A stretch of DNA of 64,000 nt from Escherichia phage vB_Ec-M-J. The position numbers and the translations under genes are program-made. Location: the sequence record OQ718158.1; one strand, 5' to 3'. This document shows, piece after piece, positions 1 through 64,000 of this stretch; positions within the stretch are counted from its first letter, which is position 1; each line of letters starts with the position of its first letter. The notes beneath the pieces are model-generated. The model saw only the letters and a program-made list of their open reading frames with translations, was not told the DNA's origin and searched no databases.

Positions 1-2
1 AA

Positions 3-149
3 GAAGAATTCTTCCAAATGCAATGTGTGCTTGACACAAAAGGATTTGATGTGCTATTATTAAAGAATATACAGAAAGCTGTTAACGAATTAATATCCAA
101 TGACGAGTTAGGCAAAGTGAGGCTGTTCCATGATCTCGAAGTACAATGA
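3..149 (+). CDS. family-A paralog, 5'-truncated at window edge
   Basis: frame-3 ORF open from window start to TGA 147-149; translation begins EEFFQMQCVLD (family motif). Confidence 0.5.
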   Translation, partial: EEFFQMQCVLDTKGFDVLLLKNIQKAVNELISNDELGKVRLFHDLEVQ

Positions 150-705
150 AAGCAATGAGTACAATGAAATTCAGTACACCTACGCTAATGCAATCCTTAT
201 GGGACAAAAGTTAGCTTGTATTGTTGCAGCCTTATATAATGCACAGAAAGATTACAAGCGTCACATCCACAAATGTATTGGTATTATTCCATCGAAGTAC
301 AATACATATATTGCGTGCACGAGACATTTTGATAAACGATTCAATACACCTGATACCCCAAATGCCCATAGTGTTATTGGTCTTTTGGATTTTGCCCCTG
401 GTGCTGTTATTGGAAAGAATGATTTAGAGTACGCATGGTATAATAAAAATGCCCCGTTAGTAATGGTAAAATATGATACAGAAACGAACAAAGCAATAGA
501 GTACAATACATATAAATCAGAGGAAGAATTTTTCCAAGGTTCATTGCTTGTGCCAGTGCGTTTGTTATTTTATAATGTCATAATGAGTACAGTACACGAT
601 AGTCCATTACACAAGAATCACAAAATTAATTTCAATTTTTGTGCTTATGCGATTGATGGTGTTTATGAGTGCTTAATGGAGGTATTGAGTTATGAAGCTG
701 AATAA
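130..705 (+). CDS. hypothetical protein, family A
   Basis: 191-aa ORF; GAGG RBS upstream; motif EEEFFQGSLL. Confidence 0.65.
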   Translation: MISKYNESNEYNEIQYTYANAILMGQKLACIVAALYNAQKDYKRHIHKCIGIIPSKYNTYIACTRHFDKRFNTPDTPNAHSVIGLLDFAPGAVIGKNDLEYAWYNKNAPLVMVKYDTETNKAIEYNTYKSEEEFFQGSLLVPVRLLFYNVIMSTVHDSPLHKNHKINFNFCAYAIDGVYECLMEVLSYEAE

Positions 706-1033
706 TACATTTGATATTAAGAAGTTAAGAGAATGGTTTAATAGTATTGAAATTGACGCCATTCCTTATCATACATATGAACAAAGTGATTTACAAAGTA
801 TTGATATCAGTGAGTTGTACAAATATTATCAGAGTGCATTAGAGATGCATAAGTTATTTTTGAGTACAAATTTCATTCTAAATTACAATTTTGAGGAATT
901 TAATAATTATAATTTAGTACAGAAATATGTAGTAGCAAAGTACATGTACAATCAAGGAATTAAAGATTGCCTCGAATTCAATACCGTTCTTATTTTAGTT
1001 GAGGTAATTTTATGCACCGCATGTCTGATTTAG
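692..1033 (+). CDS. hypothetical protein
   Basis: 113-aa ORF overlapping the upstream stop; no family motif seen. Confidence 0.5.
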   Translation: MKLNNTFDIKKLREWFNSIEIDAIPYHTYEQSDLQSIDISELYKYYQSALEMHKLFLSTNFILNYNFEEFNNYNLVQKYVVAKYMYNQGIKDCLEFNTVLILVEVILCTACLI

Positions 1034-1509
1034 AGTTCAGTTTAGATGCAGCCTTTAAATTTGTTCACAAAATAGAAACAATATATCGTACATTATGTGC
1101 AATAACATCAGTATCAAAAGAGTTTGATGTTGGTGAAAGGTATCAGGTGTGGAATAATTCATTTTATAATAAAGAACATTCTGCGACGGCATTTTATATT
1201 TTAGCATTTAATCCCAGCAATTGTTACCCAGAGAAGCATGAACGTTATCCAAATGACGACATGTGGTTTGAGTACAAAGAAGATGCTGATATGTCGTCAA
1301 TTGTAGTTCCTGATGATTTTAATGCACAAGATTTAACAGAAGAGTGGTGGTTCCAGCAGAATTTAGTACATGATGATATTGATTTATTTTTCTATATTGC
1401 ATTTAAAATGCTTTATCACAACAATATAGTTAAAGAAAGTTTATCGTTTTCATGTCTATATATTGATGATTTGTACAATGAAATTCAAATAAACATGCCT
1501 GTATCGTAA
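1012..1509 (+). CDS. hypothetical protein, family A
   Basis: 165-aa ORF; GAGG RBS; motif EEWWFQQNLV. Confidence 0.6.
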   Translation: MHRMSDLEFSLDAAFKFVHKIETIYRTLCAITSVSKEFDVGERYQVWNNSFYNKEHSATAFYILAFNPSNCYPEKHERYPNDDMWFEYKEDADMSSIVVPDDFNAQDLTEEWWFQQNLVHDDIDLFFYIAFKMLYHNNIVKESLSFSCLYIDDLYNEIQINMPVS

Positions 1510-1581
1510 GATATGGGCTTTTTTTGTTTGACACGAGTACAAATGCATGGTACAATGTGTAATCATTTTAAGGAGATACCT

Positions 1582-2157
1582 ATGGAAAATTTTAAAATAC
1601 CAGATGATTTCAATTCAGTACAAGAGATTGTACACAAGGTTCATTATATTTTTAATGAATTAATTATTGCCAATTCATCCGGTATGCAAATTGAGTTAAA
1701 GGATATTGATAGAGAAGAAGTTTTTTTGGGTTCCCCAAATTCAATCATTCCTTTTTATGGTCAGGACCGTTTATGGTTCATGAGAGATACCCCAATTGAC
1801 AAATACAAAATACAAACAAAATCAGAGTTTTATTCTATTTTTGAATATCTTAATATTACATTACAAACACAAGATATAAATGCAATAAGTGCCATGAGTG
1901 CTGAGGAATATTTTCAGTACAGTACATTGCATAGTCCAGAAGAAATCTTTGTTGTTATGCTCGTTGCAAAATTGAGTACAGTTGATTTTGGGACGTACCC
2001 AAATAAATCATTCAAGATTATTATTCCTGCATTCGTTGATCTTTATGATTTCATTGTGCACAAGAAAGAAAGTACAGTGTACGATATGTATCGTTCAAAT
2101 ATCAGTTTATTTGCATCAAGTGCAGTAAATGCAGTGATTACAGGGGAATTAAAATGA
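1582..2157 (+). CDS. hypothetical protein, family A
   Basis: ATG 1582 preceded by AGGAG at 1571-1575 (ORF-track start 1513 lacks RBS); motif EEYFQYSTL. Confidence 0.65.
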   Translation: MENFKIPDDFNSVQEIVHKVHYIFNELIIANSSGMQIELKDIDREEVFLGSPNSIIPFYGQDRLWFMRDTPIDKYKIQTKSEFYSIFEYLNITLQTQDINAISAMSAEEYFQYSTLHSPEEIFVVMLVAKLSTVDFGTYPNKSFKIIIPAFVDLYDFIVHKKESTVYDMYRSNISLFASSAVNAVITGELK

Positions 2158-2762
2158 ACATAGATCAATTAATGAAGTACAGTACAAATACAATTCCAGT
2201 GCTAAGTAAAGCATTAGATGCATTCAATGCTAAGTACCCTGAAGGTTCAGAGTTAAATATTCCTTTTACCACAGAAGGGATTGTTGATACGTACATTGTA
2301 AACATCAGTAGTACAGGTATTGTTTTGAAGCAAAAGTACGGCGAAAGTGAATATTATGGATTGAAGCTGGATAATATTTCAGGAGAGAAGACACCTTATG
2401 AGTTTTGGGTTCCGAATAACATTGAGTCATGGAAAACAAATATTAATAAGAGAGACGAAAGAAATTTACCTCTTGTACAAAATAATGAAAAAAGAATTGA
2501 TGTATTTTATTATTACAGTACAGCCCAGTTTCCAGAAGAGATTTATTTAAATTCAGAGGTGCATGAAGATATTGAATCATTTTTCTTTCAGTTATCATTG
2601 GTACAGGATATCATGCCTGTGCAAATGTTCAGGGATGAAATAAATTTAGCGAAAGAGATTTCGGATATGTTACCTGAATTTAGTGTTCTTTATGGTAGTA
2701 GAGCTTTACCTGAAAATGTTTACAAAGAATTTATTTCCATTGTTAAAGGGTTGAATATATAA
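2154..2762 (+). CDS. hypothetical protein, family A
   Basis: 202-aa ORF, ATGA overlap with upstream gene; motif ESFFFQLSLV. Confidence 0.6.
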   Translation: MNIDQLMKYSTNTIPVLSKALDAFNAKYPEGSELNIPFTTEGIVDTYIVNISSTGIVLKQKYGESEYYGLKLDNISGEKTPYEFWVPNNIESWKTNINKRDERNLPLVQNNEKRIDVFYYYSTAQFPEEIYLNSEVHEDIESFFFQLSLVQDIMPVQMFRDEINLAKEISDMLPEFSVLYGSRALPENVYKEFISIVKGLNI

Positions 2763-2763
2763 T

Positions 2764-2958
2764 ATGACCGCCTATGATATCAAACAAAGGCATACGAAGT
2801 TTGATTTGTTCACATACCAATTCCACAATGATATAGTGAATTTTAACATCAATGCGTCCTTGCATCCTACATCACAAGATGATTTTGACAACAGAGTGCT
2901 TAACATCGTGGTGCTTTTGTGTTATAATCATTTCAGTGAATATTTTAACGCCAAATGA
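2764..2958 (+). CDS. hypothetical small protein
   Basis: 64-aa ORF filling the gap between family-A genes. Confidence 0.4.
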   Translation: MTAYDIKQRHTKFDLFTYQFHNDIVNFNINASLHPTSQDDFDNRVLNIVVLLCYNHFSEYFNAK

Positions 2959-2965
2959 GGCACAC

Positions 2966-3484
2966 ATGTATCAGGCCAAGTACAATACATCATATGCATT
3001 TGCACACAACATTTTGAAGATCATCAAAGCGTTAGAGGGTGGATTGCTTAGTCATAAGTACACCAAAGTAGGTGACAATTGGTTCAGAAATGATGATGAG
3101 TTCAGAAGTCATAAGATTGTTTACAGCAATAATTACAGTGCCAATTACCTTCAGGATGTTGCTATGTGCTTCGAATACGTGTTACAGTTCAGGGGTTCCA
3201 TCAGTCCTGATCTAAGAGAACACATGTACATTCGATACCTACCAATGCTTAAGGATGAGAAATCAATATTCAATTCAGTACACCACAGAGTACGAGAGAG
3301 AACATTCAGGGATATTTTAGAAGATGAAGCTGCATATTTCCAGCAATCATTGATTGATGCTCCTGATGTGTTACAGATGCAGAATTTGTATAATGTATTA
3401 GATGCGAACATCGATACGGATATCTTTTTTTCCTTAAGTGATTATGAAACATTTTTGGAAGATTTAAAGGAAATAGGATTATGA
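2966..3484 (+). CDS. hypothetical protein, family A
   Basis: ATG 2966 with GAGG RBS at 2957-2960; motif EAAYFQQSLI. Confidence 0.6.
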   Translation: MYQAKYNTSYAFAHNILKIIKALEGGLLSHKYTKVGDNWFRNDDEFRSHKIVYSNNYSANYLQDVAMCFEYVLQFRGSISPDLREHMYIRYLPMLKDEKSIFNSVHHRVRERTFRDILEDEAAYFQQSLIDAPDVLQMQNLYNVLDANIDTDIFFSLSDYETFLEDLKEIGL

Positions 3485-3825
3485 GTAGATTTTCAGTTTA
3501 TATAGTAAACGTCAGTAAAGATGGTAGTTTAATTGAATTTGATGTAGTTGATAACAATGATAATTCATATGGTATTAAGGTACAGGACAATGATGTACAG
3601 TTCAGTACAAGGACAAATTTTGAGAATCCAGTCCAAGTTCCGAATTTCATAGAAGATGAAGCTGCACGATTCCAACACGAAACGGCCTTTGATAATTTAG
3701 CGATGCATATTATTATGCAACAGAGTTTAGTTCAATTGCTTCAGGTATTCAGACAAAATATATATGTACATGAAGTGTCGATTAATGGCATTCAAAGTTC
3801 CGTTTTGTTCGGTACAAATATGTAA
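3481..3825 (+). CDS. hypothetical protein, divergent family A
   Basis: 114-aa ORF; degenerate motif EAARFQHETA. Confidence 0.5.
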   Translation: MSRFSVYIVNVSKDGSLIEFDVVDNNDNSYGIKVQDNDVQFSTRTNFENPVQVPNFIEDEAARFQHETAFDNLAMHIIMQQSLVQLLQVFRQNIYVHEVSINGIQSSVLFGTNM

Positions 3826-3835
3826 GGAAAGTACA

Positions 3836-4390
3836 ATGAGTTCAATGAGTTTATTAGATACATTAGAAAAAGACAGAAGTGCCATTAAGAGATTAAAAAA
3901 TCTTGTCCAGAGCATTGCGAACAACGCTGAGAAGTTCAGTGACAATCTTAGTATAGGTGATATAACCAGTACAGGAATAAAAACCCTGAAGTCAGATTTA
4001 TTAATTCATAAGGAAGATAAATTATTATTTGTATTGAGTTCAGATTTAATGGTTGCAAGTAATGGTTTCAATTCGATATCAACACAAGATGGTAGCACAG
4101 GATTATATCTATCACAGGGTGTCCAGACGAACGAACAAAAGTGTTTTAGTTCAGGAGTACAGAATCCCTTTAAGTTCAGTACAGAACAAGCTACAGAGCT
4201 TTTAGATGCTTCAGAAGAGATGTTATTTCAGTACAAAACGGTTCATACAGATTTTGAATTACGATGCATGTACGCTGTTAAGCATTATGTTCAGGAGTTC
4301 GAGAATTTAAGTTATCTTTTAGTTCGAACGAATACAAAGAACATTGGTGCATTAGAAGATTACATTTCAAAAGTTGTTAAAGGGTGCTAA
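3836..4390 (+). CDS. hypothetical protein, family A
   Basis: ATG 3836 after AGGAAAG; motif EEMLFQYKTV. Confidence 0.6.
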   Translation: MSSMSLLDTLEKDRSAIKRLKNLVQSIANNAEKFSDNLSIGDITSTGIKTLKSDLLIHKEDKLLFVLSSDLMVASNGFNSISTQDGSTGLYLSQGVQTNEQKCFSSGVQNPFKFSTEQATELLDASEEMLFQYKTVHTDFELRCMYAVKHYVQEFENLSYLLVRTNTKNIGALEDYISKVVKGC

Positions 4391-4399
4391 AGGGTGCTG

Positions 4400-4561
4400 A
4401 TGAAAGAGTTATTTGAAGAACAGTTCGATACATATGTGGATAATATTCTTTATTCTAGTCGTGCTAGTCAACGAGGAAATCGTGCTTACAACATAGATTA
4501 CCTATTAACGGTGCTGAGTTCACAGTACACCTACGCTGTGCAGAGGACATATTATGGATAA
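4400..4561 (+). CDS. hypothetical small protein (53 aa)
   Basis: short ORF not in the ORF track, ATG 4400 directly after a 9-bp tandem duplication; weak support. Confidence 0.3.
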   Translation: MKELFEEQFDTYVDNILYSSRASQRGNRAYNIDYLLTVLSSQYTYAVQRTYYG

Positions 4562-4757
4562 TTTTAGAGATGTTGCAAAGGAGAAGTTCAAGTGCAGTTT
4601 AGATTACGGTTTAAATGATTTTCTTACATGCACAATGTACAGGAATGATGATTATGAGCAATCCGTAATTTCGTTGCACAGATATTTCGAAATAATTTAC
4701 GCAAGATATCTTAGAAGGTTAGATGGGACAGGGGATTGGAATTATGATTACGTTTGA
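4554..4757 (+). CDS. hypothetical protein
   Basis: 67-aa ORF; GAGGA RBS 4543-4547. Confidence 0.5.
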   Translation: MDNFRDVAKEKFKCSLDYGLNDFLTCTMYRNDDYEQSVISLHRYFEIIYARYLRRLDGTGDWNYDYV

Positions 4758-4968
4758 AGAGCCGGAAGTGGTATATTGCTTTAGTGTGAAAGGTTTTGAA
4801 TACATGATGGATTCGATTTTGAAGGATACATATTTGGTTCAGATTGAAGTTACAGATAATACAGATAATGCATTACAGCGAGTATTGAATATATACGAGA
4901 GGACGAGTCGAAGGCTTTGTGCGATGAAAAGGATTGAAGAAATCAAGCTTTCTAGGCTGAATAAATAG
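4744..4968 (+). CDS. hypothetical protein
   Basis: ATG 4744 (MITFEEPE...) overlapping the upstream stop; GGGGA RBS-like. Confidence 0.45.
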   Translation: MITFEEPEVVYCFSVKGFEYMMDSILKDTYLVQIEVTDNTDNALQRVLNIYERTSRRLCAMKRIEEIKLSRLNK

Positions 4969-5174
4969 AGACGTTTCATTTTCACAGGCCGCAGGAGGGG
5001 GGGTCAAAAAAATTTTCGCTGAAAAACATGTTAAGGTATATGTTTAATATAAAGTTTTAAAATGTGTTCACAGAGTACAGTTCATGTTTCCTTAAACAAA
5101 AAAATACCCAGCCGCCGAACGTGCTCCTTATATTGGAGTTTACCTTATTAATTACAGTAGAGATTACAATTGAA

Positions 5175-5558
5175 ATGAAGATGCAAATAAAATATAATGA
5201 ATTTTGTGCAAGGACATTCATGTACACTGGTGAATTAGTTACGCACTGTAACTTATACAAGGGTGATTTAAACTACACAAGGGACAAGCTTATAAAATAC
5301 GAAAATGCTGACTTTTATTTGATGGATTTTAGTACTGGGTTTCATGGGATATCTATCGAGATGCCGGACTATACCGTACTTGATGATGCTGCACTGTTTC
5401 AGGAGGCATTAGTATTTGATAAGAAGTACATCTGTACATTAGAAGAGATAGTTGAAATCCAGCGTAGAATTAAATGTATTCACAGGGAATGTATAGATAT
5501 CTGGTGCAGGACTGGTGAGGCTGATTTCTGGAAATTTTTTAATCTAGGGGAAGAGTGA
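5175..5558 (+). CDS. hypothetical protein, family A (ELFQESL subfamily)
   Basis: start chosen by alignment to the next two paralogs (CNLYKGD); motif PDYTVLDDAALFQEALVFDKKY. Confidence 0.6.
   Translation: MKMQIKYNEFCARTFMYTGELVTHCNLYKGDLNYTRDKLIKYENADFYLMDFSTGFHGISIEMPDYTVLDDAALFQEALVFDKKYICTLEEIVEIQRRIKCIHRECIDIWCRTGEADFWKFFNLGEE
5361..5462 (+). repeat. nucleotide-level paralogous repeat, copy 1 of 3
   Basis: ~85% identical by eye to 5726-5827 and 6103-6186 (atgccggactata...gataagaagtac...). Confidence 0.6.
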
Positions 5559-5914
5559 TGGAATTTGATTTTGTAATATCAGTACATTCTTTTAAGAACA
5601 GTTTTCAGTACTTTTGTAATTTAAACAAAGGTGATTTAATGCACAGTGCAAATGAGTATATTCATTACACTCAGGGTAAATTTACATTCATTGATTACAA
5701 TTCATTACAGTATCCACATCAAGATATGCCGGACTATACAGTAATGGATGCCGCTGAACTATTTCAGGAGTCATTAGTATTTGATAAGAAGTACTTGTGT
5801 ACATTTGAAGAAGTAATTGCAATACAAAATGAAATGAAAGAGTATGACTCTTTGAATAAAGGCAATGTCAGTATTAATCAAGAATACAAATTCAATATAG
5901 GAATTCCAGAATGA
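5555..5914 (+). CDS. hypothetical protein, family A (ELFQESL subfamily)
   Basis: tandem paralog; motif PDYTVMDAAELFQESLVFDKKY. Confidence 0.7.
   Translation: MMEFDFVISVHSFKNSFQYFCNLNKGDLMHSANEYIHYTQGKFTFIDYNSLQYPHQDMPDYTVMDAAELFQESLVFDKKYLCTFEEVIAIQNEMKEYDSLNKGNVSINQEYKFNIGIPE
5726..5827 (+). repeat. nucleotide-level paralogous repeat, copy 2 of 3
   Basis: matches 5361-5462. Confidence 0.6.
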
Positions 5915-6255
5915 CATTTGATTTTTCTATGTTTATACCTAAGATTAGTACTTCACTGGAAGTGTATTGCAATCTTAACAAAGGTGATTATGAACACAAA
6001 ATGGATCAGTACATTAAATTTAATGGTTCTTACTTTAGCTTCATTGATTATCAGGCCAAAGGAACAGTTGTAGAAAATATGAAAGACTATGCAACTGTAC
6101 ATGGTGAGGCTGAAATATTTCAAGAGTCATTAATATTTGACAAGAAGTACTTGTGTACACTAGAGGAAGTTATTGAACTCCAACAGAAGATGAAAGAATA
6201 TAGAAGAATCTGCATAGAGACTGATTCCAAAGATAGGTATTGTTTTAAGCTATGA
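5911..6255 (+). CDS. hypothetical protein, family A (ELFQESL subfamily)
   Basis: tandem paralog; motif AEIFQESLIFDKKY. Confidence 0.7.
   Translation: MTFDFSMFIPKISTSLEVYCNLNKGDYEHKMDQYIKFNGSYFSFIDYQAKGTVVENMKDYATVHGEAEIFQESLIFDKKYLCTLEEVIELQQKMKEYRRICIETDSKDRYCFKL
6103..6186 (+). repeat. nucleotide-level paralogous repeat, copy 3 of 3
   Basis: matches 5400-5462 region (ttcaagagtcattaatatttgacaagaagtac). Confidence 0.5.
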
Positions 6256-6437
6256 ATAAAAAAGAACAAATGGAATCATTCATGAATACAATACTTCGAC
6301 GATTCGTAATTGATATTAGACATAACAACAGCATTAGGAATGATATGTACTTCGGTACATATGATATTAGTGAATTGTATATAGCTAATATTCACATGGT
6401 GTACCGAGATTATATCAAGACACAACACAGGAGTTGA
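6252..6437 (+). CDS. hypothetical small protein
   Basis: 61-aa ORF with ATGA overlap to upstream gene. Confidence 0.4.
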   Translation: MNKKEQMESFMNTILRRFVIDIRHNNSIRNDMYFGTYDISELYIANIHMVYRDYIKTQHRS

Positions 6438-6438
6438 T

Positions 6439-6909
6439 ATGAGTTTTTCAAGAGCATTAGAAATTGCTAAGTTAATTGATTTATGTAAAAAGGAAATAGT
6501 ACTCAATCGTCTCAATGGGTATCTATTCAAGGAAGGTAAAGCTTATTGTCGAATGATATACGATGACAGTAGTGAGTACATTCACATGTACGAAGAAAAC
6601 TTAGATTCTTCTGAAACAACACTCACTGGGTGTGATGTTAATCTGGAAGATAATTACATGTACTTCTGTCGTGATGCTGATATTTTAATACAATATACTG
6701 ACATTATAACTGGTGCAGCAGAAAAACATCTTCCGTATTCAGTACTGGATAATGACTGGGGAAGTGAAGAGTTCTACTTCCAGCAGAATACTATCTACGA
6801 GGAATATGTGCTTGACAAGCTTGTCATTCTGTGGTACTTTAATAATACCGATTGTCCTAGCTTCTATCTGGACTTGGATCTACTACGAGTTATTAAAGAG
6901 GATATATGA
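6439..6909 (+). CDS. hypothetical protein, family A (MSxxSAL subfamily)
   Basis: AGGAG RBS; N-terminus MSFSRALEIAK; motif SEEFYFQQNTIY ... LVILWYF. Confidence 0.7.
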   Translation: MSFSRALEIAKLIDLCKKEIVLNRLNGYLFKEGKAYCRMIYDDSSEYIHMYEENLDSSETTLTGCDVNLEDNYMYFCRDADILIQYTDIITGAAEKHLPYSVLDNDWGSEEFYFQQNTIYEEYVLDKLVILWYFNNTDCPSFYLDLDLLRVIKEDI

Positions 6910-7346
6910 GTTTAGCAAGTGCACTTAAACTGGCACACAAAATACATCACTTCCACGATAACATAAAAAGTGGTTTCTATGGTGATAAAGTAAGTGCATT
7001 TGGTAATGAGTATTATCTATCAGGTATAAAGACATACTCTGATGATATTTTACTTATGGGCCATGATAAAGACAATACTATACAGTACTCTTCATGTAGT
7101 CAATATACTAGTTTTTTTGTATATATTCCAGGTACTAAGATTACTTTTGACACATCAAATACACCTGTTGACTTCGGGATACTTGATGGGCCGTGGGGTA
7201 CTGAAGAGTATTACTTCCAACAGAGTCTTATTTTTAACCAAGAAATGCTTGATTCCTTGGTTGTTTTGTGGTACTTTAAGGAATTGAATTTTGAACCCTT
7301 CTTCCTTGACTGGGGAGCATGTGAATATTTAAGTACAGGGGATTAG
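6906..7346 (+). CDS. hypothetical protein, family A (MSxxSAL subfamily)
   Basis: N-terminus MSLASALKLAHK; motif GPWGTEEYYFQQSLIF ... LVVLWYFK. Confidence 0.7.
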   Translation: MSLASALKLAHKIHHFHDNIKSGFYGDKVSAFGNEYYLSGIKTYSDDILLMGHDKDNTIQYSSCSQYTSFFVYIPGTKITFDTSNTPVDFGILDGPWGTEEYYFQQSLIFNQEMLDSLVVLWYFKELNFEPFFLDWGACEYLSTGD

Positions 7347-7348
7347 TA

Positions 7349-7837
7349 ATGTCATTACAAAGTGCATTGAAAGAAGCAAAGAAGATTCATGAGTACATGA
7401 TTATGGTACAAGAAGGTTCAGTGCCTGGTGTGTATAAAACATCTGATACTGAATTTTTTGTAAAAGACCGCGACGATTATGATGAGTCAGAGATACATGC
7501 AGAAACGTTAGTACTACACACTGATACGGGTGATACTGATGACTGTGAATATCATATGTACAATCAATACATTAGTTATTGTAGAGATGAAGATATTATA
7601 ATTTACAGCCCTGATTACGATGATTATGACACAATCATTCCGTATTCAGTACTGGAAGGTCCGTGGGACAGTGAGGAATATTACTTCCAGAACAGTACTG
7701 TGTACAATGAAGAAGAATTAGATGTTATTGTAATTATGTGGTACTTTAAAAGTATTGGTTCTGGTAGTTTCTATTTCGATTATGAATACGTAGAGAATAC
7801 TGTAGGGGAAGATAATGTCATTACGAAGTGCTCTTGA
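7349..7837 (+). CDS. hypothetical protein, family A (MSxxSAL subfamily)
   Basis: N-terminus MSLQSALKEAKK; motif GPWDSEEYYFQNSTVY ... IMWYFKSI. Confidence 0.7.
   Translation: MSLQSALKEAKKIHEYMIMVQEGSVPGVYKTSDTEFFVKDRDDYDESEIHAETLVLHTDTGDTDDCEYHMYNQYISYCRDEDIIIYSPDYDDYDTIIPYSVLEGPWDSEEYYFQNSTVYNEEELDVIVIMWYFKSIGSGSFYFDYEYVENTVGEDNVITKCS
7631..7775 (+). repeat. nucleotide-level paralogous repeat, copy 1 of 2
   Basis: ~80% identical by eye to 8094-8233 (ggtccgtgggaYagtgaRgaRtattacttYcagaaYagtact...). Confidence 0.6.
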
Positions 7838-8258
7838 TAAAGCAAAAGAACTACAGGCATATATTGAAGATATTAAGGCTGGGAAGTTCGAAGAAGTATA
7901 CAAAGCCGAGAATGGTAACTACTACAAGGATTGTGATTTTGCTACAACTACAGTTATTCTTGGGTTGAATTCCAAAAGTCCCGCAGATTTTTCACAATAC
8001 AATCCAGATGCAGAATTTATCAGTTATGCTTATGGTGGTGAAATCCGTTTTTATAATCGCAGCAGACCTTTAAAATTGAACTTTGAAGTACTGAAAGGTC
8101 CGTGGGATAGTGAAGAGTATTACTTTCAGAATAGTACTTTGTATGATGATGAAGTACTAGATACTTTAGTTATTATGTGGTACTTTAAAAGTATTGATAG
8201 CACAAGATTTTATTTGGATTATGAATATGTACGTGCAGCACATAAGGGTAAACGATGA
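7815..8258 (+). CDS. hypothetical protein, family A (MSxxSAL subfamily)
   Basis: N-terminus MSLRSALDKAKE; motif GPWDSEEYYFQNSTLY ... IMWYFKSI. Confidence 0.7.
   Translation: MSLRSALDKAKELQAYIEDIKAGKFEEVYKAENGNYYKDCDFATTTVILGLNSKSPADFSQYNPDAEFISYAYGGEIRFYNRSRPLKLNFEVLKGPWDSEEYYFQNSTLYDDEVLDTLVIMWYFKSIDSTRFYLDYEYVRAAHKGKR
8094..8233 (+). repeat. nucleotide-level paralogous repeat, copy 2 of 2
   Basis: matches 7631-7775. Confidence 0.6.
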
Positions 8259-56385: not shown

Positions 56386-56394
56386 GAGTTTAAA

Positions 56395-56715
56395 ATGTCG
56401 TACTCAATGTTCTTGGATGATATTCGTGATTATCAAAAATATTATCCTGACCAAGAGATGGTATTGTGTCGTGACTACGAAAGTGCATGTGAATACGTAA
56501 TCAAAAATGGAATTCCAGCATTTGTCTCATTTGACCATGACTTGGGTGACTTGAGTACAGATGAGAAAACGGGATACACTTTTGCCAAATTTCTAATTGA
56601 TTATATGTTTGAGCATAATATTAAAGAACCATTTAAATACTATGTACATAGTAGTAATCCAGTAGGGAAAGTTAATATTGAAACTTACTTAACTAATGGA
56701 TTTAATGCACTATGA
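56395..56715 (+). CDS. hypothetical protein
   Basis: 106-aa ORF; AGGAG RBS. Confidence 0.5.
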   Translation: MSYSMFLDDIRDYQKYYPDQEMVLCRDYESACEYVIKNGIPAFVSFDHDLGDLSTDEKTGYTFAKFLIDYMFEHNIKEPFKYYVHSSNPVGKVNIETYLTNGFNAL

Positions 56716-57014
56716 TTTCAACACATATCAAGAGTCTTATTTGCACAACACTGTTAGGTATAGGTGTTCTATGGTTCAGTTCATATCATGAGAACACTAA
56801 ACGTTACAATATTCATTACAATGCAGCGACTGTAACAGGATTAGGTCAATGTAATGAAAATAAATGCTCATTTACTTATAAAACCAGTACTGGTGAAGTT
56901 CGTAATGGGTTATCAAGAGATCCAGTATCAATTGGTCAACTAGTTTACCAGGAATGCTGGGAGGAAAAGGCTCGTGGTTCAAGATGTTATGTTGAATACG
57001 AACCGAGCATGTAA
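56712..57014 (+). CDS. hypothetical exported or membrane-anchored small protein
   Basis: N-terminal hydrophobic segment LICTTLLGIGVLWFS; Cys-rich. Confidence 0.45.
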   Translation: MISTHIKSLICTTLLGIGVLWFSSYHENTKRYNIHYNAATVTGLGQCNENKCSFTYKTSTGEVRNGLSRDPVSIGQLVYQECWEEKARGSRCYVEYEPSM

Positions 57015-57075
57015 TATTCCGAGTCACTAACCATTAGTCGAGTACAAGGATGTACTCATAACTCAAGGATGTTTT

Positions 57076-58515
57076 ATGAAAAAATATACAATTGACACAA
57101 ACGTACTACTATCTGATCCAAATGCTACCATTGCTTTTGATGGAGCAGCTATCATTCTACCGTTCACAGTACTTGAAGAATTGGATTCAATTAAAAGTCG
57201 TAATGTGGATGTTTCCCGTGATGCTCGTGTTGCAATCCGTAACATTGAAGCTATCCTTTCTGATGCATCACATGAAGAAATTAGTAGTACTGGTGTTAAT
57301 ATTGCTGATGTTCATACTAATATGAGTCCTGAAAGCAAATTGTTTGTTATTACAAGCGAAGAAGCTGAAGCACTAATTCGTACTGCTGGTAACGAAGAGA
57401 AAGTTCAAACTCTTCTAAAAAGCACAGTACCAGATGATAAAATCATTTTAGTAGCATTAGCAACTGATTCAGTACTGGTTACCCGTGATATCAATATGCG
57501 TATCAAGGCTCTAAGCTACGGGGTGGAAGTTCAAGATTATCGTCATGATATCGTGATTGGTGATAGTGATTTGATTCACATTGGTCAACATCACCTTGAC
57601 CTACATTTCTGGGATGTGTATAGTAATCTGACTGATGTATCTATTCAGTCTGAACAAGTTGGTCGTCGTTTGTACCACTACATTCCAAAAAGCTTGATTG
57701 AACATATCATGCCACAAAATATTTGCATCGGTGATTACCTATATGATAATGCTGATGTTCTATTTGTGTACGAAGGTCAATCTGCAATTGAAGAAGATGA
57801 TGGTACTTTAACACCAGAAGATATTCTTGTATTCCAAGATATTGGACAATCTGTTGCTCTACGTGCTAAAGTGTGGGATATTAAGGCTAAGAATATTCAA
57901 CAAGCACTAGCAATCAACAGTATCCTAGATCCTGATGTTCATCTAACAGTACTGTTAGGTTCAGCAGGTACTGGTAAAACACTAATCACCATTGCAACTG
58001 CACTAGAGTTAGTTCTAGAGAAGAAAAAATACGACCGTATCATCTTCTCCAAAACACAAGATTCCCAATTCGAAGACATTGGTTTCTTGCCTGGTTCTGA
58101 AGCAGAGAAAGTGATTCCTTTCTGTGGTGCGGCAATCGATGCGTTGGAATTCCTACACAAAGATGATGCTAACCCACAAGGCAGTATCGAAGAAATCATG
58201 AAACGCAATGTTATCCAATTCAAAGCACTAAACTTCGTTCGTGGTCGTTCTTTCACAAATACTATCCTAGTAGTTGATGAATTCCAGAACATCACACCTG
58301 CTCAGGCAAAAACAATCTTGACTCGTGCAGGGATGAACTGTAAAGTGGTTATTATGGGCAACTTGAGCCAGATTGACTCTAAATTCATTAGTCCAGTAAA
58401 CAGCGGCCTAACTTATGTTACCGAGAAGTTCAAGAACTGGGACGGCTGTCGTGTAATCGAACTAGAAGGTGTCGTTCGTTCACCACTAGCAGAATTTGCA
58501 GAAGAAAATATGTAA
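57076..58515 (+). CDS. phoH: PhoH-like ATPase with N-terminal PIN domain
   Basis: N-terminal IDTNVLLSDPNA (PIN-like acidic pocket) and Walker A LLGSAGTGKT; 479 aa. Confidence 0.88.
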   Translation: MKKYTIDTNVLLSDPNATIAFDGAAIILPFTVLEELDSIKSRNVDVSRDARVAIRNIEAILSDASHEEISSTGVNIADVHTNMSPESKLFVITSEEAEALIRTAGNEEKVQTLLKSTVPDDKIILVALATDSVLVTRDINMRIKALSYGVEVQDYRHDIVIGDSDLIHIGQHHLDLHFWDVYSNLTDVSIQSEQVGRRLYHYIPKSLIEHIMPQNICIGDYLYDNADVLFVYEGQSAIEEDDGTLTPEDILVFQDIGQSVALRAKVWDIKAKNIQQALAINSILDPDVHLTVLLGSAGTGKTLITIATALELVLEKKKYDRIIFSKTQDSQFEDIGFLPGSEAEKVIPFCGAAIDALEFLHKDDANPQGSIEEIMKRNVIQFKALNFVRGRSFTNTILVVDEFQNITPAQAKTILTRAGMNCKVVIMGNLSQIDSKFISPVNSGLTYVTEKFKNWDGCRVIELEGVVRSPLAEFAEENM

Positions 58516-58581
58516 TAATGTGTGGGACATTCGTCCCATACATGATATAATAATATTGTTAACAACAAAGGAGAAATACTC

Positions 58582-58779
58582 ATGGCAAAGCAACCTAAGA
58601 AAAAAGAACCAGTAGCAAAAGTTAAGAAAGTTAAAGTTATTCAATCTAAAGAACAACGTAATTACGAACTACGTAAAGCAGAAACCCTATCAGGTCTTCA
58701 AGCTCTACGTAAACAAGGTGTTCTAACTCGTGCTCAATACCGTGAGATCGTAGCACAAAAAGGTTATTGGTCCATTTGA
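58582..58779 (+). CDS. hypothetical small basic protein
   Basis: AAGGAGAAA RBS; Lys-rich N-terminus. Confidence 0.5.
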   Translation: MAKQPKKKEPVAKVKKVKVIQSKEQRNYELRKAETLSGLQALRKQGVLTRAQYREIVAQKGYWSI

Positions 58780-58873
58780 GGCAATAAACTGGAGTTCATG
58801 ATAAATACTTTCATAAGAATAATAATACTTTTTATTAATTTAAAAAGAACTCCATGTGTTATTTCAGTTTTTC

Positions 58874-58903
58874 ATCCCTGTCTTTTGGCAGGGATTTTTT
58901 CTT
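58874..58903 (+). terminator. rho-independent terminator
   Basis: hairpin ATCCCTG-tcttttgg-CAGGGAT followed by TTTTTTCTTT. Confidence 0.7.
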
Positions 58904-58995
58904 TCTAGATATTGACAAAAGGATTAAACCATGAGAACATGTAGTAAAGGAAGAATGACATTCCATTAGGTTAGTTTAACTTAAAGGAGAAATAT

Positions 58996-59553
58996 ATGTT
59001 TTTTGACCAAACATTTACGTTGTACCATGATTCAGGTAAAGTTGAGATTATTGATAATCTGTTAGAGTACATTGCGGAACATGACGGTATAGACCGTTTC
59101 CACAGTAAGATGAAATTCGATTTAGCTGAATTCAACAAAAAGAATCGTGAAACATTTTGGAAGAACCGTTTCTATTACGAAATGTATCCAGAAAAGTTCG
59201 TAGGTTATTATCTTTGTACTGAAAAAGGATTACTTGTATCTCCTGATTTACTTATGGGTGAATACATGATACTCTATAATGAGTACTGGGAACATAAGCG
59301 TAATGCTCGTGACACTGAATGGCGACACAAGCGTTCGTATATGTACAAACATAACCACTCCAGATACAAACGTCCTAAGACCCAACAAGAGCGTCGTATG
59401 GCTTGTGCAGTACTGAAGGATGAGGGGGAACCTGAAATACGTGGAAGACGTAAGATGCGTTCATTGCCATCGTATTGGGATGATATCAGAACAAGACACA
59501 GTACTGGCTGGAAATACAGTACAAAACGTAAACATCAATACAAAGGGAGCTAA
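58996..59553 (+). CDS. hypothetical protein with basic C-terminus
   Basis: AAGGAGAAA RBS; Arg/Lys-rich tail. Confidence 0.55.
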   Translation: MFFDQTFTLYHDSGKVEIIDNLLEYIAEHDGIDRFHSKMKFDLAEFNKKNRETFWKNRFYYEMYPEKFVGYYLCTEKGLLVSPDLLMGEYMILYNEYWEHKRNARDTEWRHKRSYMYKHNHSRYKRPKTQQERRMACAVLKDEGEPEIRGRRKMRSLPSYWDDIRTRHSTGWKYSTKRKHQYKGS

Positions 59554-59569
59554 TGCTCCCTAATTTTAT
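59545..59569 (+). terminator. rho-independent terminator overlapping the stop codon
   Basis: hairpin GGGAGC-taat-GCTCCC followed by TAATTTTAT. Confidence 0.55.
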
Positions 59570-59580
59570 AGGTGAACTTT

Positions 59581-59910
59581 ATGAACAAAATTGACGTTAC
59601 TGTAGTGATTGGTTATATTGAAATTGAACCGTGTGGCATTGATACCTTTATTGACACTCTTAATAAGTATCGTGCTGAATATGACGGTCACATTAGTCTT
59701 TCACCAGACAGTGGTTACGGCGGTTTTCATGGATACAATGTAATTTGGACCAGAGAAGAAACTGACGAAGAATACCATGCACGAATTGAAGCTGAATCTA
59801 AAAGACGTGAAGAAATTGAACGTCAAGAAATGAAACACTTGATGAACAAGAAATCATTAAGTACCGAAGAGAAATCTAAACTTTTAAAATACATCAAGGA
59901 TTACATGTAA
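59581..59910 (+). CDS. hypothetical protein
   Basis: ATG 59581 after GGTGA; Glu/Lys-rich C-terminus. Confidence 0.5.
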   Translation: MNKIDVTVVIGYIEIEPCGIDTFIDTLNKYRAEYDGHISLSPDSGYGGFHGYNVIWTREETDEEYHARIEAESKRREEIERQEMKHLMNKKSLSTEEKSKLLKYIKDYM

Positions 59911-60557
59911 TGAAAAATGTATCACAAGAAAAGATTCTGTACCTTGCAAAGTACAATGGTGGATTTAATATTACCAGTTGTGAATATCATGGTAACATGG
60001 CTAAAATGATTGACGAGCTACTAGAAGGTAAAATGCTCCGTTGGGAGACAAATGACCTTTGGTACGAATATGCGGGTCAACAATGGGAAAGTGACTACGA
60101 TAATGCAATTCATACGTATACAATTACTAAAAGTGGTGAAGTACGTTTGGCTATCATGCGTTGTGCTTACACTTACAAAAATTTCAAAGATGAAGAAAAG
60201 CATATTCGCCGAAATGAAGAGTTAGTACACCTAATGGGTGAAGCTGGCATTACAATGCATGACTTGTTCAATGAACCAAGATGGACTGGGAATCTGACCA
60301 AAGCAGAATACAAAGCATTGCGATACATCCAAGTACCAGAAATCAACAAACCAAAAGAATGTATTGATGATGGTGAACTAAGCCTCAAAAATGTATTTGA
60401 AAGTACCAGTACTGAAAGTATTGCTGATCTTTCAGTTCAGATGGCTATCAAAGCTATGGAACTATTCAAAACACAATATGAAGGACACAGTGCTGAAGAA
60501 GTAGAGCGTGAGTTCATTACGCGAGTACAAATTGCATTACATAAATCAAAAAAGTAG
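59910..60557 (+). CDS. hypothetical protein
   Basis: 215-aa ORF. Confidence 0.55.
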   Translation: MKNVSQEKILYLAKYNGGFNITSCEYHGNMAKMIDELLEGKMLRWETNDLWYEYAGQQWESDYDNAIHTYTITKSGEVRLAIMRCAYTYKNFKDEEKHIRRNEELVHLMGEAGITMHDLFNEPRWTGNLTKAEYKALRYIQVPEINKPKECIDDGELSLKNVFESTSTESIADLSVQMAIKAMELFKTQYEGHSAEEVEREFITRVQIALHKSKK

Positions 60558-60563
60558 GTTCAT

Positions 60564-60743
60564 ATGAAAATTTTACTTGTACTAATCGCCGTTCTTATGG
60601 TATTATCTTGTTCAGTTAGTAATGGTTCATACATTTACGTATCAGTATTTGAAGAAGCACCAACGAACTGTGTATTAACTCACACTGGTATTGTGTTAGT
60701 TAATGGTAAACCATCAATCGAGTACTTATGTATAGGTGATTAA
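60564..60743 (+). CDS. putative small lipoprotein (59 aa)
   Basis: ORF not in the ORF track; signal peptide MKILLVLIAVLMVLSC with lipobox-like LSC. Confidence 0.45.
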   Translation: MKILLVLIAVLMVLSCSVSNGSYIYVSVFEEAPTNCVLTHTGIVLVNGKPSIEYLCIGD

Positions 60744-60746
60744 ATT

Positions 60747-60980
60747 ATGAAATTTATTTCTATTGCAATTGTTTCAGCACTCATGATGTTAGTAACAGGC
60801 TGTGCATCTAAAGTTCAGGAGGCTGATGCAGAGTTCATTCGCCAGAATTTGACTAAACTTAACTACGATGGCACATTGTATGCTTGCCATGAGATGCGTC
60901 ATGGGCAAGATCTTAATCTCATGTGCAGGAAGATTGTGAATCGCAAACGTCTTAATACTGTTCCGAAGGATGCACAATGA
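60747..60980 (+). CDS. putative lipoprotein
   Basis: signal peptide with lipobox LVTGC at residues 15-19. Confidence 0.55.
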   Translation: MKFISIAIVSALMMLVTGCASKVQEADAEFIRQNLTKLNYDGTLYACHEMRHGQDLNLMCRKIVNRKRLNTVPKDAQ

Positions 60981-61147
60981 AAGAAGTAATTGGTTACAAA
61001 TGTAAAAATTGTGGCAAAGATAAGGGTAAGCATTCAGTACAAGGGATGGCTTGTCCGAATCCAGGACGTGGTAATTTCAGAGGGTTCAGTACTGAAAAGT
61101 CTTACGAACTGGATCATACCAAACCTGTAATGGGTTATAAATTATGA
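60977..61147 (+). CDS. small zinc-ribbon protein (56 aa)
   Basis: ORF not in the ORF track; CKNCG ... CPNPG; ATGA overlaps at both ends. Confidence 0.4.
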   Translation: MKEVIGYKCKNCGKDKGKHSVQGMACPNPGRGNFRGFSTEKSYELDHTKPVMGYKL

Positions 61148-61503
61148 GTGATTATGTGGCATTTCTTCATCGCTTTGGTGAAGCTCAAGAAAAACACATT
61201 ATCCGTATGCCAGCTTATGGTGAAGAAGACTGGTACAAAAGTACTATCAGTGTAGGTGCATTTCGTGACCGTGAAGCTGAATTCTTTCTGGGTAAGCAAC
61301 ATGAACGAGAGGTACTTTGCTCACTTTGGCGTTTAGATGAATGGGATAGTGAAAATTCAAGAACGGCTAAATCAATGATGACTATTGTTGGTATTGCGAA
61401 CTATCAGCACCCATATGATCTATTACCTACATTTGAACATGCTTCTTTGTTTGACTTTTACAAAGCAGTAGGGTATGATTATAAAAAGAAACGTTACATT
61501 TAA
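61144..61503 (+). CDS. hypothetical protein
   Basis: 119-aa ORF. Confidence 0.5.
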   Translation: MSDYVAFLHRFGEAQEKHIIRMPAYGEEDWYKSTISVGAFRDREAEFFLGKQHEREVLCSLWRLDEWDSENSRTAKSMMTIVGIANYQHPYDLLPTFEHASLFDFYKAVGYDYKKKRYI

Positions 61504-61548
61504 TATCAGTACTGTTATAGTGGCAGTACTTTTTAATTGGAGATTACT

Positions 61549-62163
61549 ATGACTACATCTGAAAAGTACTGGTGGATTATGGGCCATCCTAAATTCATCA
61601 ACGGAGATATGGTTCCCCCAAGGATTGATATCGAACCACATGATGTGTGTCCAATCACAAACCGCATTGAATCATTTAAAGCTCTGAATACAAAGACACA
61701 ATTTTGGGTAGAATTCATCTCACCTATGTACGTTGAGCAAGATGATGAATGGGTACAAGCACATGATTATGAGTTAGATTGCGGTGGTGATACTTATGAT
61801 GAGGCAATTGATGAACTATACAAAAATGTGCTAAACACTTATGGTGATTACACCCAACAAGAAGCAGACGATACGTTTAATAAGATCCATGCAGTCATTC
61901 CTACATCATCAATTTACAATTCAGCAAAAACAGTTTGGGAAGAACGTCACGGGTGGAGTTCATCTGTAATTGATGCAGAAGCCAAAGAAACAATTCTCGA
62001 AGACATAAAAAATATAAAAAGTACAATAGAAGCCTTGCGTGAATTTATAAAGTCTTGTACAATAGAACAACAGAAAGAGGCAAAGATGCATTTGGAGAGT
62101 GAAGAATGTAAACTTTGGGTTCTAGAGAAATCATTTGAAAAGGGTATAGACTTAGACTTATGA
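61549..62163 (+). CDS. hypothetical protein
   Basis: ATG 61549 after GGAG. Confidence 0.55.
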   Translation: MTTSEKYWWIMGHPKFINGDMVPPRIDIEPHDVCPITNRIESFKALNTKTQFWVEFISPMYVEQDDEWVQAHDYELDCGGDTYDEAIDELYKNVLNTYGDYTQQEADDTFNKIHAVIPTSSIYNSAKTVWEERHGWSSSVIDAEAKETILEDIKNIKSTIEALREFIKSCTIEQQKEAKMHLESEECKLWVLEKSFEKGIDLDL

Positions 62164-62528
62164 ATCGTAAACTTGAGAAACTAATTGAAGAACTACGCCG
62201 GATGCCACCCATCGAGCAAGTGGGGAGCTACAAACGTTATCGTGTGATTGCTCGTGCACTAGATAAGAAAGGTCGTGTATTGGCAACACGTACTAATTCT
62301 TACACACATACTCACCCAGTACAGAAAGGTTTTGCAATCCGTGCTGGGCGTCCACAAGGTGAATTTCTTCATGCTGAAATCTCATGTTTGCTGGCTTCTC
62401 GTGCTGAAGTTCATACTTTGTTGATTGCACGGGTAAGTAAAGATGGTATTCCAGTCCCTGCCAAGCCTTGTGAGATTTGTACGTTGGCAATTCTGGAATA
62501 TGGGGTAAAAGAAATTATTCACACATGA
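62160..62528 (+). CDS. cytidine/deoxycytidylate-deaminase-fold zinc protein
   Basis: HAE ... PCEIC zinc-binding signature in a 122-aa protein. Confidence 0.6.
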   Translation: MNRKLEKLIEELRRMPPIEQVGSYKRYRVIARALDKKGRVLATRTNSYTHTHPVQKGFAIRAGRPQGEFLHAEISCLLASRAEVHTLLIARVSKDGIPVPAKPCEICTLAILEYGVKEIIHT

Positions 62529-62746
62529 AGAAAATTGAACGCTACCAAAACCATACAGTTGTGACTGAAGATGATATATTTTATTATTATATTTTCAGAC
62601 CCACACACTGTTTACAAATAACGACATATGAGAATGGTAAATTCAAAGATGTCAACTTCCATATAACAGATTTAGCAAAATATTCCAGTACTGAATACTT
62701 TAGTAATTTAGTATTTGTGTACTGTATACCACATCATAACATTTAA
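62525..62746 (+). CDS. hypothetical protein
   Basis: ATG 62525 overlapping upstream TGA. Confidence 0.45.
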   Translation: MKKIERYQNHTVVTEDDIFYYYIFRPTHCLQITTYENGKFKDVNFHITDLAKYSSTEYFSNLVFVYCIPHHNI

Positions 62747-62756
62747 GGAGTCAACT

Positions 62757-63116
62757 ATGGCTAAAACTATTTCTTTAAAAAATGAAAATGTAGGACAACG
62801 CAAAGATGGGTTCTTTGGATTCTCATGGACAACATTGTTCTTTGGTCCGTTCCCTGCATTGTTTCGTGGTGACTTTATTACGTTCATCGGTGCATTTGTA
62901 ATTTACTTCATCCTCAACGCAGTGTCTTTTTGGATTGTGGGTACAGTTGCAATGGTCGTGTGGGCATTTCTTTATAATAAGTACTACACTGTGAATCTCA
63001 TCAAGAATGGGTATAAATTCAATGGTACACATGAAGAAAATGCTGAAGCTGCAATGGCGTTACAAATTGATCTAAACAAAAACAATACTGTAGATAAAAA
63101 CAAAGAACCAGAATAA
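62757..63116 (+). CDS. hypothetical membrane protein
   Basis: AAGGAG RBS; two hydrophobic helices. Confidence 0.5.
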   Translation: MAKTISLKNENVGQRKDGFFGFSWTTLFFGPFPALFRGDFITFIGAFVIYFILNAVSFWIVGTVAMVVWAFLYNKYYTVNLIKNGYKFNGTHEENAEAAMALQIDLNKNNTVDKNKEPE

Positions 63117-63335
63117 ATGGATCAATATGAGATAACTTACGATTATTATGGTAAGGCTTATATGAAGTGTGGTCGTTTTATTGAACTATCGAATAGAGAA
63201 GCAATCGACCCACAAACCATTATATCCATCCATAACTCGTACTATAAAAAAATTACCATAGCTAATTTTGCAACATACGTAGATAATCCTATATTTCCGT
63301 ATATTATTCAGTTCTATTGTAGAGCTATAAAATAA
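63117..63335 (+). CDS. hypothetical protein
   Basis: 72-aa ORF. Confidence 0.45.
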   Translation: MDQYEITYDYYGKAYMKCGRFIELSNREAIDPQTIISIHNSYYKKITIANFATYVDNPIFPYIIQFYCRAIK

Positions 63336-63346
63336 GGTAAAACGAA

Positions 63347-63757
63347 ATGTTAGCCGATGATTTTATGTCTCTAAGTATCAAGATATTTGATATATTAGGT
63401 GATGAAATAGATTTCCATCTAAATGATAAAACTATACCACACGAAGATGGTGGGTATTTTTTCGCATTTGGTAATAAGTTCAATGTTGATTTTTCAATTC
63501 CGGTTCCTGATGGAAGTGATTATGCAGCATCAACATATTTTGAATTTCAGTTCAGTGGTCATACCGAGCGTTTACTAACATATAGACGTAAAGGAAATTT
63601 CAGTAGGCCAGAGATTATATTAATGGATTTTGAAAAACGCATAGAACTTGCCAAGAATAATCCATTCATCAGTACTTATGCGTTAAACCAATTCATTGAT
63701 CTATTTGATGGATATCCAGACAGAATACGAGGGTCGTTACGTATAAATGCAGAATGA
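63347..63757 (+). CDS. hypothetical protein
   Basis: 136-aa ORF; AAGGTAAAA RBS. Confidence 0.5.
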   Translation: MLADDFMSLSIKIFDILGDEIDFHLNDKTIPHEDGGYFFAFGNKFNVDFSIPVPDGSDYAASTYFEFQFSGHTERLLTYRRKGNFSRPEIILMDFEKRIELAKNNPFISTYALNQFIDLFDGYPDRIRGSLRINAE

Positions 63758-63932
63758 AATCTTTAAAAAAGAATACGATGGTGAAAGTCTCTATGATATT
63801 CAGCGAGACGTACATGAAGCATTCGATTCAAGATTTAACCCATTAGCTGGACAAATCCCACAAGATGAGTTTGGTTTCCAAGAAGGCACATTTACAGTGA
63901 CTATTACATGGAGTCCAGATGAGACTAGCTAA
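63747..63932 (+). CDS. hypothetical small protein
   Basis: 61-aa ORF. Confidence 0.4.
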   Translation: MQNEIFKKEYDGESLYDIQRDVHEAFDSRFNPLAGQIPQDEFGFQEGTFTVTITWSPDETS

Positions 63933-64000
63933 ACTTGTAATCGGATGCAGTGCAATTGCTGCATATATGTTTTTTGCCGCTCCAACCAATGTAGTACTGC
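63919..64000 (+). CDS. hypothetical membrane protein, 3'-truncated at window edge
   Basis: ATG 63919 opens MRLAKLVIGCSAIAAYMFFAAPTNVVL, running off the window. Confidence 0.35.
   Translation, partial: MRLAKLVIGCSAIAAYMFFAAPTNVVL

Follow-up and report, generated by a model that had tools for sequence, protein, structure and literature searches.

We analysed 64,000 nucleotides of Escherichia phage vB_Ec-M-J (sequence record OQ718158.1), a stretch that we call the window, in which the palindrome AGTACT occurs 185 times against 21.5 copies expected, an 8.6-fold excess by exact count. The window belongs to an Escherichia coli jumbo myovirus of the PBECO4/121Q type (genus Asteriusvirus, RaK2-like). 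Its identity is 97-98% with Ecwhy_1 and fEgEco12 and about 80-86% with PBECO4 and 121Q. All its genes lie on the + strand and its G+C content is 0.34. It lies on the left, early side of the genome and begins about 10 kb past the 21-kb direct terminal repeat of fEgEco12, and it comprises an island free of AGTACT and a domain rich in it (Table 1). The 21.5 copies expected in the window follow from base composition. Genome-wide counts refer to the complete fEgEco12 record, which was assembled for this purpose (375 kb for AGTACT; the genome size is about 350 kb), and other genomes were counted from sampled stretches, for example the GAP32 early region, 100 kb of E. coli K-12 and 41 kb of XacN1.

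Table 1. Features of the window and their positions.
Feature	Position	Strand	Remarks
AGTACT-free island	1..5330	+	56 GTAC, none followed by T; 33 AGTACA; motif CAGTACAG on the coding strand only
AGTACT-rich domain	5331..64000		185 copies, 3.15 per kb, 40 of them CAGTACTG
Full 8-mer CAGTACTG	6740..6747		Intragenic example
CAGTACTG	7647-7654 and 7693-7700		True copies close to the wrong position 7624 of the first-pass annotation
Two copies of CAGTACTG	9522-9529 and 9538-9545		16 bp apart
Orphan DNA N6-adenine methyltransferase gene	28659..29183	+	174 aa; Pfam PF05869 Dam family, E 1e-32; candidate writer in case AGTACT is methylated
RNA ligase and polynucleotide kinase	37425-38567 and 39390-40322		Close-lying T4-like RNA repair pair, as annotated in fEgEco12 and 121Q
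DNA ligase	46594-48012		Downstream of the RNA repair pair, as annotated in fEgEco12 and 121Q
Two intergenic AGTACT	61508 and 61525 (61508..61530)		Upstream of a gene start

A first-pass annotation of this DNA, made by eye, had put the number of AGTACT at well over 100 across the window, against about 20 expected, and at about 35 in the first 14 kb. The over-representation is real and stronger than it reported, since exact counting gives 42 copies in those 14 kb besides the totals stated above. It had also extended the excess over positions 1-64000, which is right for the whole but not as a uniform trait, because 1-5330 contains no copy. The 8-mer CAGTACTG, which it described as occurring dozens of times against fewer than one expected, was counted 40 times and reaches about 7 in shuffles; among the positions quoted for it, 6740, 9522 and 9538 are correct, while 7624-7631 reads TTATGACA. 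The three most over-represented hexamers of the window are CAGTAC (13-fold), GTACTG (9.5-fold) and AGTACT itself, and no other 6-bp palindrome exceeds 2.2-fold.

Four shuffles were used to separate the word from the proteins in which it is written. Synonymous-codon shuffling within genes gave 57.4 ± 6.2 AGTACT (z of 20.7 for the observed 185), pooled synonymous shuffling 52.6 ± 5.7, synonymous shuffling that preserves both dinucleotides and proteins 58.9 ± 5.7 (z of 22) and shuffling of codon order 34.8 ± 5.1 (z of 29). The codon-shuffled null proposed in the first-pass annotation is thus one that the enrichment survives, with z of about 21-29 across shuffles, and most of the excess is left over, which means that codon choice and amino-acid order are both bent towards AGTACT. 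As that annotation had stated, the word is used in all reading frames (75/39/60) and between genes (11 copies). Together with the shuffles and a twofold higher density in non-coding DNA, this bears out its view of a bias at the DNA level, and codon usage or a peptide motif can be ruled out as the cause. Flanking information around AGTACT is confined to positions -1 (C) and +1 (G), and therefore the word is not part of a longer repeat. The two halves and the flanks are nearly independent of each other, resembling an additive binding matrix.

Repeats carried by paralogues were also ruled out as the source, given that no flank information exists beyond ±1 and that the copies in the F-D-K-K-Y repeat are a small minority. 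A paralogous trio of consecutive small genes (5415, 5780 and 6136) has a common TTTGAYAAGAAGTAC(A/T)T(C/G)TGTACA encoding F-D-K-K-Y-(I/L)-C-T; the first trio copy (5415), near the island boundary, contains AGTACA and the other two contain AGTACT. A sequencing artefact was ruled out as well, since the sites are common to independently sequenced genomes.

The pattern extends to the whole genome. In fEgEco12, 97% identical to the window, AGTACT occurs 1115 times (8.8-fold), and CAGTACTG, with 261 copies (65-fold), is the most over-represented 8-mer. The density is 2.3-2.6 per kb in genes of either orientation and 5.0 per kb in non-coding DNA, and it is highest in the 21-kb terminal repeat (64-75 AGTACT per 10 kb). 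Spacing is near-Poisson (coefficient of variation 0.89); neither helical or other short periodicity nor regular spacing of AGTACT was found, and the half-sites have no global strand polarity, by gene orientation or by position, outside the island at 1-5330. When the window was aligned with 121Q (84% identity), 74% of the AGTACT were intact, against 42% of all hexamers and 40% of hexamers of the same composition. In agreement, 159 of 163 sites (97.5%) are intact in fEgEco12, where the figure for all hexamers is 89.7%. A three-way comparison gave 118 common sites, 41 restricted to the window/fEgEco12 pair and 40 restricted to 121Q, a turnover of 25% over 16% divergence. AGTACT copies are maintained by selection at about one per 350 bp, through codon choice, through amino-acid choice and most freely in non-coding DNA. 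Their density is at an equilibrium reached through many individually replaceable sites, each of them conserved or replaced.

The island follows a different rule. GTAC is followed by T in 0 of 56 cases there, against 55% elsewhere (P about 6e-20), and GTACT is missing entirely. The highest-ranking words there, CAGTACA and AGTACAG, both belong to CAGTACAG, which sometimes appears as AGTACAGTACA. The + strand has about 6-7 AGTAC per kb (37 in 5.3 kb, of which 33 are AGTACA), and the - strand has none. A counterpart of 6-8 kb, 77-94% identical to the window, was found in fEgEco12 (29.0-37.3 kb), in 121Q (11.8-19 kb of the sampled segment) and in UE-S1 (5-11 kb of the sampled segment). The AGTACA sites of the island turn over singly, and none of the aligned sites reads AGTACT in either 121Q or UE-S1. 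The genes of the island match only PHROGs of unknown function. Upstream of it, just within the boundary of the terminal repeat (21-26 kb in fEgEco12; 6-9 kb in the sampled segment of 121Q), about 25 paralogous genes, each of about 70 aa, stand in tandem. This 5-kb array has no enrichment of GTAC or AGTACT, unlike the remainder of the genome.

Regarding its distribution among phages, the word marks one clade. High counts were obtained for 121Q (162 against 16.7 expected), UE-S1 (35 against 5.6 expected), Klebsiella phage RaK2 (100, 7.5-fold), Cronobacter phage GAP32 (217 in the early region, 16-fold), Pectobacterium phage CBB (77, 7.5-fold) and Yersinia phage fHe-Yen9-03 (83, 6-fold), and GCGC is absent (0 copies) from each of these samples. 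Against 10 AGTACT expected in each case, T4 has 3, PA5oct 1, the phi92-like coliphage PD06 none and XacN1 (41 kb) none, and E. coli K-12 (100 kb) has 4 against 23 expected. GCGC is at normal levels in T4 and PA5oct and amounts to 23 copies in PD06 (33 expected), 64 in XacN1 (149 expected) and 755 in E. coli K-12 (436 expected). The window itself has no GCGC where 51 copies were expected, and 354 kb of fEgEco12 has none where 354 were expected. Among the sampled genomes, this absence and the enrichment of AGTACT coincide exactly, the AGTACT-poor ones all keeping GCGC. AGTACT is nearly exclusive to the phage DNA, its density being about 2.8 per kb there and about 0.04 per kb in E. coli, where GCGC reaches 7.5 per kb, one every 130 bp. 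In E. coli K-12 AGTACT is about 6-fold under-represented, and three of its four copies are the full CAGTACTG, numbers too small for a reading. Also, 25 G+C-rich 6-bp palindromes stand at exactly zero in fEgEco12, and GATC is at half of its expectation in the window (94 against 197).

The C and G flanks of AGTACT recur in phages that infect Escherichia, Klebsiella, Cronobacter, Pectobacterium and Yersinia. Since the clade covers five host genera, a reader of the word is most simply explained as phage-encoded. The avoidance of AGTACT by E. coli, T4, PD06, PA5oct and XacN1 implies that carrying it is normally a liability. Judging from these counts, AGTACT is a liability elsewhere that has been turned into the hallmark of one clade. 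We found no earlier description of the trait in the searchable literature on these phages, the GAP32 paper lying outside that search.

A hint of the mechanism comes from the terminal repeat of fEgEco12 (1-21000), whose intergenic regions contain near-consensus sigma-70 promoters in which AGTACT keeps a fixed position. Three arrangements are repeatedly seen, TTGACA-N11-AGTACT-G-TATAAT, AGTAC-TTGCAA-N17-TATAAT and TTGAC-AGTACT, in which one or two boxes end 1-2 nt upstream of the -10 hexamer and abut the -35 hexamer; some promoters have two boxes 22 bp apart, centre to centre. -10-like and -35-like hexamers show sharp offset peaks around AGTACT. The word is present in 18 of the 27 strict sigma-70-like promoters of the repeat, against 16% expected from local density, and in 16 of these 18 it stands at register -7/-8 from the -10 hexamer. 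Only 1 of 63 promoter matches contains it in a gene-dense interior stretch of 100 kb of fEgEco12. The promoters annotated by the authors of GAP32, a phage of a different genus, read AGTACT-TTGACA-N10-AGTACT-T-TATAAT (11183-11211 and 11575-11603 of the sampled segment). A palindromic box is hence placed over the core promoter elements at a fixed position and conserved across relatives, as in an operator. Many of the intergenic cassettes of the terminal repeat, formed by a promoter, a hairpin and a ribosome-binding site, are near-identical duplicates of each other.

A possible explanation, to which we assign a probability of about 0.4, is that AGTACT, with CAGTACTG as its optimum, is a genome-wide recognition box, under positive selection, for a sequence-specific DNA-binding protein encoded by the clade, and that it would also act as an early-promoter operator. 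The operator-like promoter layout is the main reason for favouring such a protein over the alternatives. Its gene would lie in the genomes of the enterobacterial RaK2/121Q/GAP32 jumbo phages, and the protein may be a small dimer that places one subunit on each AGTAC half. A model for the box is the 8-bp palindromic met box of MetJ-type ribbon-helix-helix repressors. Binding at early promoters would occlude sigma-70 RNA polymerase, so that early transcription would be timed or shut off, while the approximately 1000 intragenic boxes would turn the entire phage chromosome into a substrate or sink that the protein prefers. These intragenic boxes may serve to mark self DNA, to coat the DNA or to couple regulation to genome copy number. 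Among the causes offered by the first-pass annotation, a binding site for a phage protein is the best supported, by the conservation of positions, by clade-specificity across hosts and by the fixed promoter registers; for a packaging signal no evidence was found.

Several points weigh against this proposal. Pfam scans of the annotated regulators and nucleases gave no usable candidate for the reader. A box of 6-8 bp is short for most dimeric repressors, and the benefit that about 1000 intragenic sites might bring is purely conjectural. The promoter registers are partly inflated by the duplicated cassettes of the terminal repeat, and few AGTACT lie in recognisable promoters within the window itself. 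Furthermore, a symmetric dimer does not predict an island with the asymmetric CAGTACAG on one strand, which would be predicted by a strand-specific reading of AGTAC or by a second reader.

A broader and rather doubtful idea is that about 1000 AGTACT together with zero GCGC write the identity of the phage into its sequence, which would allow self and non-self to be discriminated by composition. In this sense, a phage reader would recognise, coat or regulate phage DNA only, and a phage or host activity against GCGC-containing DNA would destroy or silence the host chromosome and spare the phage. Strand-specific domains such as that of CAGTACAG would then be local exceptions. Such a system would be the functional counterpart of hydroxymethylcytosine in T4, laid down in sequence instead of in modified bases.

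The same sites may instead be the target of an orphan phage methyltransferase, with the mark selected for protection from restriction specific to AGTACT, as an epigenetic self-mark or as an early-promoter switch, an alternative that we regard as unlikely. It finds support in the Dam-family N6-adenine methyltransferase of the window and in a 286-aa C5-cytosine methyltransferase encoded elsewhere in the genome, such enzymes being present in all clade members examined in the literature (CBB paper; RaK2 paper PMC3622015). AGTACT is exactly the ScaI site and is avoided by the host and by unrelated phages as a restriction target would be, so that a phage with about 1000 ScaI-type sites seemingly needs protection in hosts where other phages avoid them. 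There is also a precedent in the cyanobacterial palindrome HIP1, within which two orphan methyltransferases have their targets (PMC4390886). However, restriction predicts avoidance, and protection alone would relax this avoidance to about 1-fold and not to an enrichment of 8-9-fold; methylation of AGTACT could account for tolerance of the site, not for its enrichment. Characterised PF05869 members methylate GATC. The Dam-family enzyme has a homologue, 45% identical, in the XacN1-like phage XbC2, whose relative XacN1 has no AGTACT in 41 kb. The C5 enzyme was rejected as a likely writer because its RaK2 counterpart is reported to methylate CpG, as detected by bisulfite sequencing (PMC3622015), a dinucleotide that AGTACT lacks, and because a homologue 50% identical to it occurs in PD06, a phage with zero AGTACT. 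No Vsr gene lies beside the C5 enzyme, and the neighbours of the word are not depleted. DNA of fEgEco12 is cut normally by ten enzymes, ScaI and RsaI not among them (PMC13070987).

Somewhat less probable still is that the functional unit is the strand-specific 5-mer AGTAC (CAGTAC), read on single-stranded DNA or by a translocating enzyme, either as a start site for a T4-type primase or as an attenuator or hotspot, in the manner of Chi, for a helicase-nuclease; on this view the palindrome would be the cheapest way of placing the 5-mer on both strands. The nicking or recombination signal suggested in the first-pass annotation is possible solely in this form. In its favour, the 6-mer is only 1.14-1.2-fold above independence given the 5-mer counts, the polar island, with AGTAC on the + strand only and conserved in three species, looks as a polar signal would, and the density is highest in the terminal repeats beside the DNA ends, where true Chi is enriched too. 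T4 and T7 primases start at trinucleotides that contain 5'-GT. Outside the island, however, no polarity is tied to gene orientation or position, the chance frequency of the 5-mer (about 1 per 900 nt per strand) would already be enough for priming, the genome has no annotated sequence-reading helicase-nuclease, and the fixed promoter registers are unexplained by a 5-mer. It is very improbable that the word is a neutral by-product of biased mutation or repair, of the very-short-patch kind or by correction of quasi-palindromes, as its presence everywhere and in all frames, its near-Poisson spacing and the substantial turnover of single sites might suggest. The one-step neighbours of AGTACT stand at 1.0-2.2-fold (AATACT/AGTATT at 1.16-fold and AGCACT/AGTGCT at 1.67-fold), other palindromes are not raised, and the gene overlapping that of the C5 methyltransferase has no Vsr domain. 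Undepleted neighbours and the lack of Vsr beside the C5 enzyme mean that a drive by very-short-patch repair, as for CCWGG in E. coli, is not supported, and it was rejected. Moreover, the sites are conserved well above background, the promoter registers are fixed, and the paralogue array and the island, both several kilobases long and in the same genome, escape the process, the island with another word. Sites for a host protein that the phage might titrate or activate, such as the nucleoid-occlusion factor SlmA, are the least credible of the explanations. The SlmA consensus GTGAGTACTCAC has an AGTACT core, and E. coli under-represents AGTACT, but agreement with the SlmA flanks is below chance, with at least 3 of 6 matches at 78 sites against 127 expected. 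The flank combination GAGTACTC is the rarest, with one case among the 185 sites of the window, and the most disfavoured flanking bases are G at -1 and C at +1; as the flanks anti-match beyond the core, SlmA sites were rejected.

The closest known relative of the pattern is HIP1 (GCGATCGC), a highly iterated palindrome found in cyanobacteria (PMC4390886; PMC5861425). Both are short palindromes, HIP1 being 10-100-fold over-represented in all frames and between genes, up to about one per gene; in both, positions are conserved between genomes, which argues for selection and not for a repair drive, and orphan methyltransferases are found in the same genomes. AGTACT shares with HIP-type words the order-of-magnitude excess, the independence of frame and the conservation of sites. 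It differs in belonging to a virus, in being another, A+T-rich word, in its promoter role, in having one domain with an asymmetric variant and in a methyltransferase link that is only a candidate. The distribution of HIP1 is periodic at 10-90 kb, and the spacing of AGTACT is near-Poisson over the short ranges examined.

AGTACT also resembles the uptake signal sequence (USS) of Haemophilus and the DNA uptake sequence (DUS) of Neisseria, genome-wide self-labels with weakly selected sites that turn over and that are rare in foreign DNA, present at about 1 per kb and read by a specific protein. USS and DUS are, however, 9-12 nt long, non-palindromic and read during DNA uptake, a process that a lytic phage does not have. 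Genome-coating proteins that repress early promoters offer another parallel: p6 of phi29 reads bendability and TF1 of SPO1 reads hydroxymethyluracil. The proposed AGTACT reader would be like them in being abundant, in preferring phage DNA and in acting at the early promoters of a terminal region and along the genome. Neither p6 nor TF1 reads a short palindrome, and no homologue of them was found here.

If such a reader is found, it may help to explain how a very large chromosome is organised, regulated or protected in jumbo phages that apparently lack both a global base modification and a phage nucleus, and it may provide a new, very short and portable DNA tag together with its binding protein. 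Hyper-abundant palindromes have been studied mainly as cyanobacterial HIP1, whose function is open after 30 years, and they are now available in lytic phages that can be grown and engineered. The trait has a clear phylogenetic on/off boundary, part of it lies in directly testable promoters, and the island, an 8-kb domain with a one-base variant on one strand, is a natural experiment. Also, the clade can be recognised in metagenomes by two simple composition markers, AGTACT and the complete absence of GCGC.

Chi (GCTGGTGG), with its readers of the RecBCD/AddAB type, is likewise a short word in excess, by which self DNA is marked for a processing enzyme. It is asymmetric and has an orientation bias, whereas AGTACT is symmetric, without global polarity of its half-sites, and polar only in the island at 1-5330. 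Chi itself occurs in the window at 37509, 45132, 49701 and 52036 on the + strand and at 27909 on the - strand (4+1 against 0.3 expected). In fEgEco12, leaving out the second copy of the terminal repeat, there are 24+12 copies; ten of those on the + strand are in the terminal repeat, mostly intergenic, and a palindromic pair of Chi lies near the left end (578/590).

Concerning the other annotated genes of the window (Table 1), the RNA repair pair is followed downstream not only by the DNA ligase but also by Sir2-like, NUDIX and PhoH-like genes, according to the annotation of fEgEco12 and 121Q.

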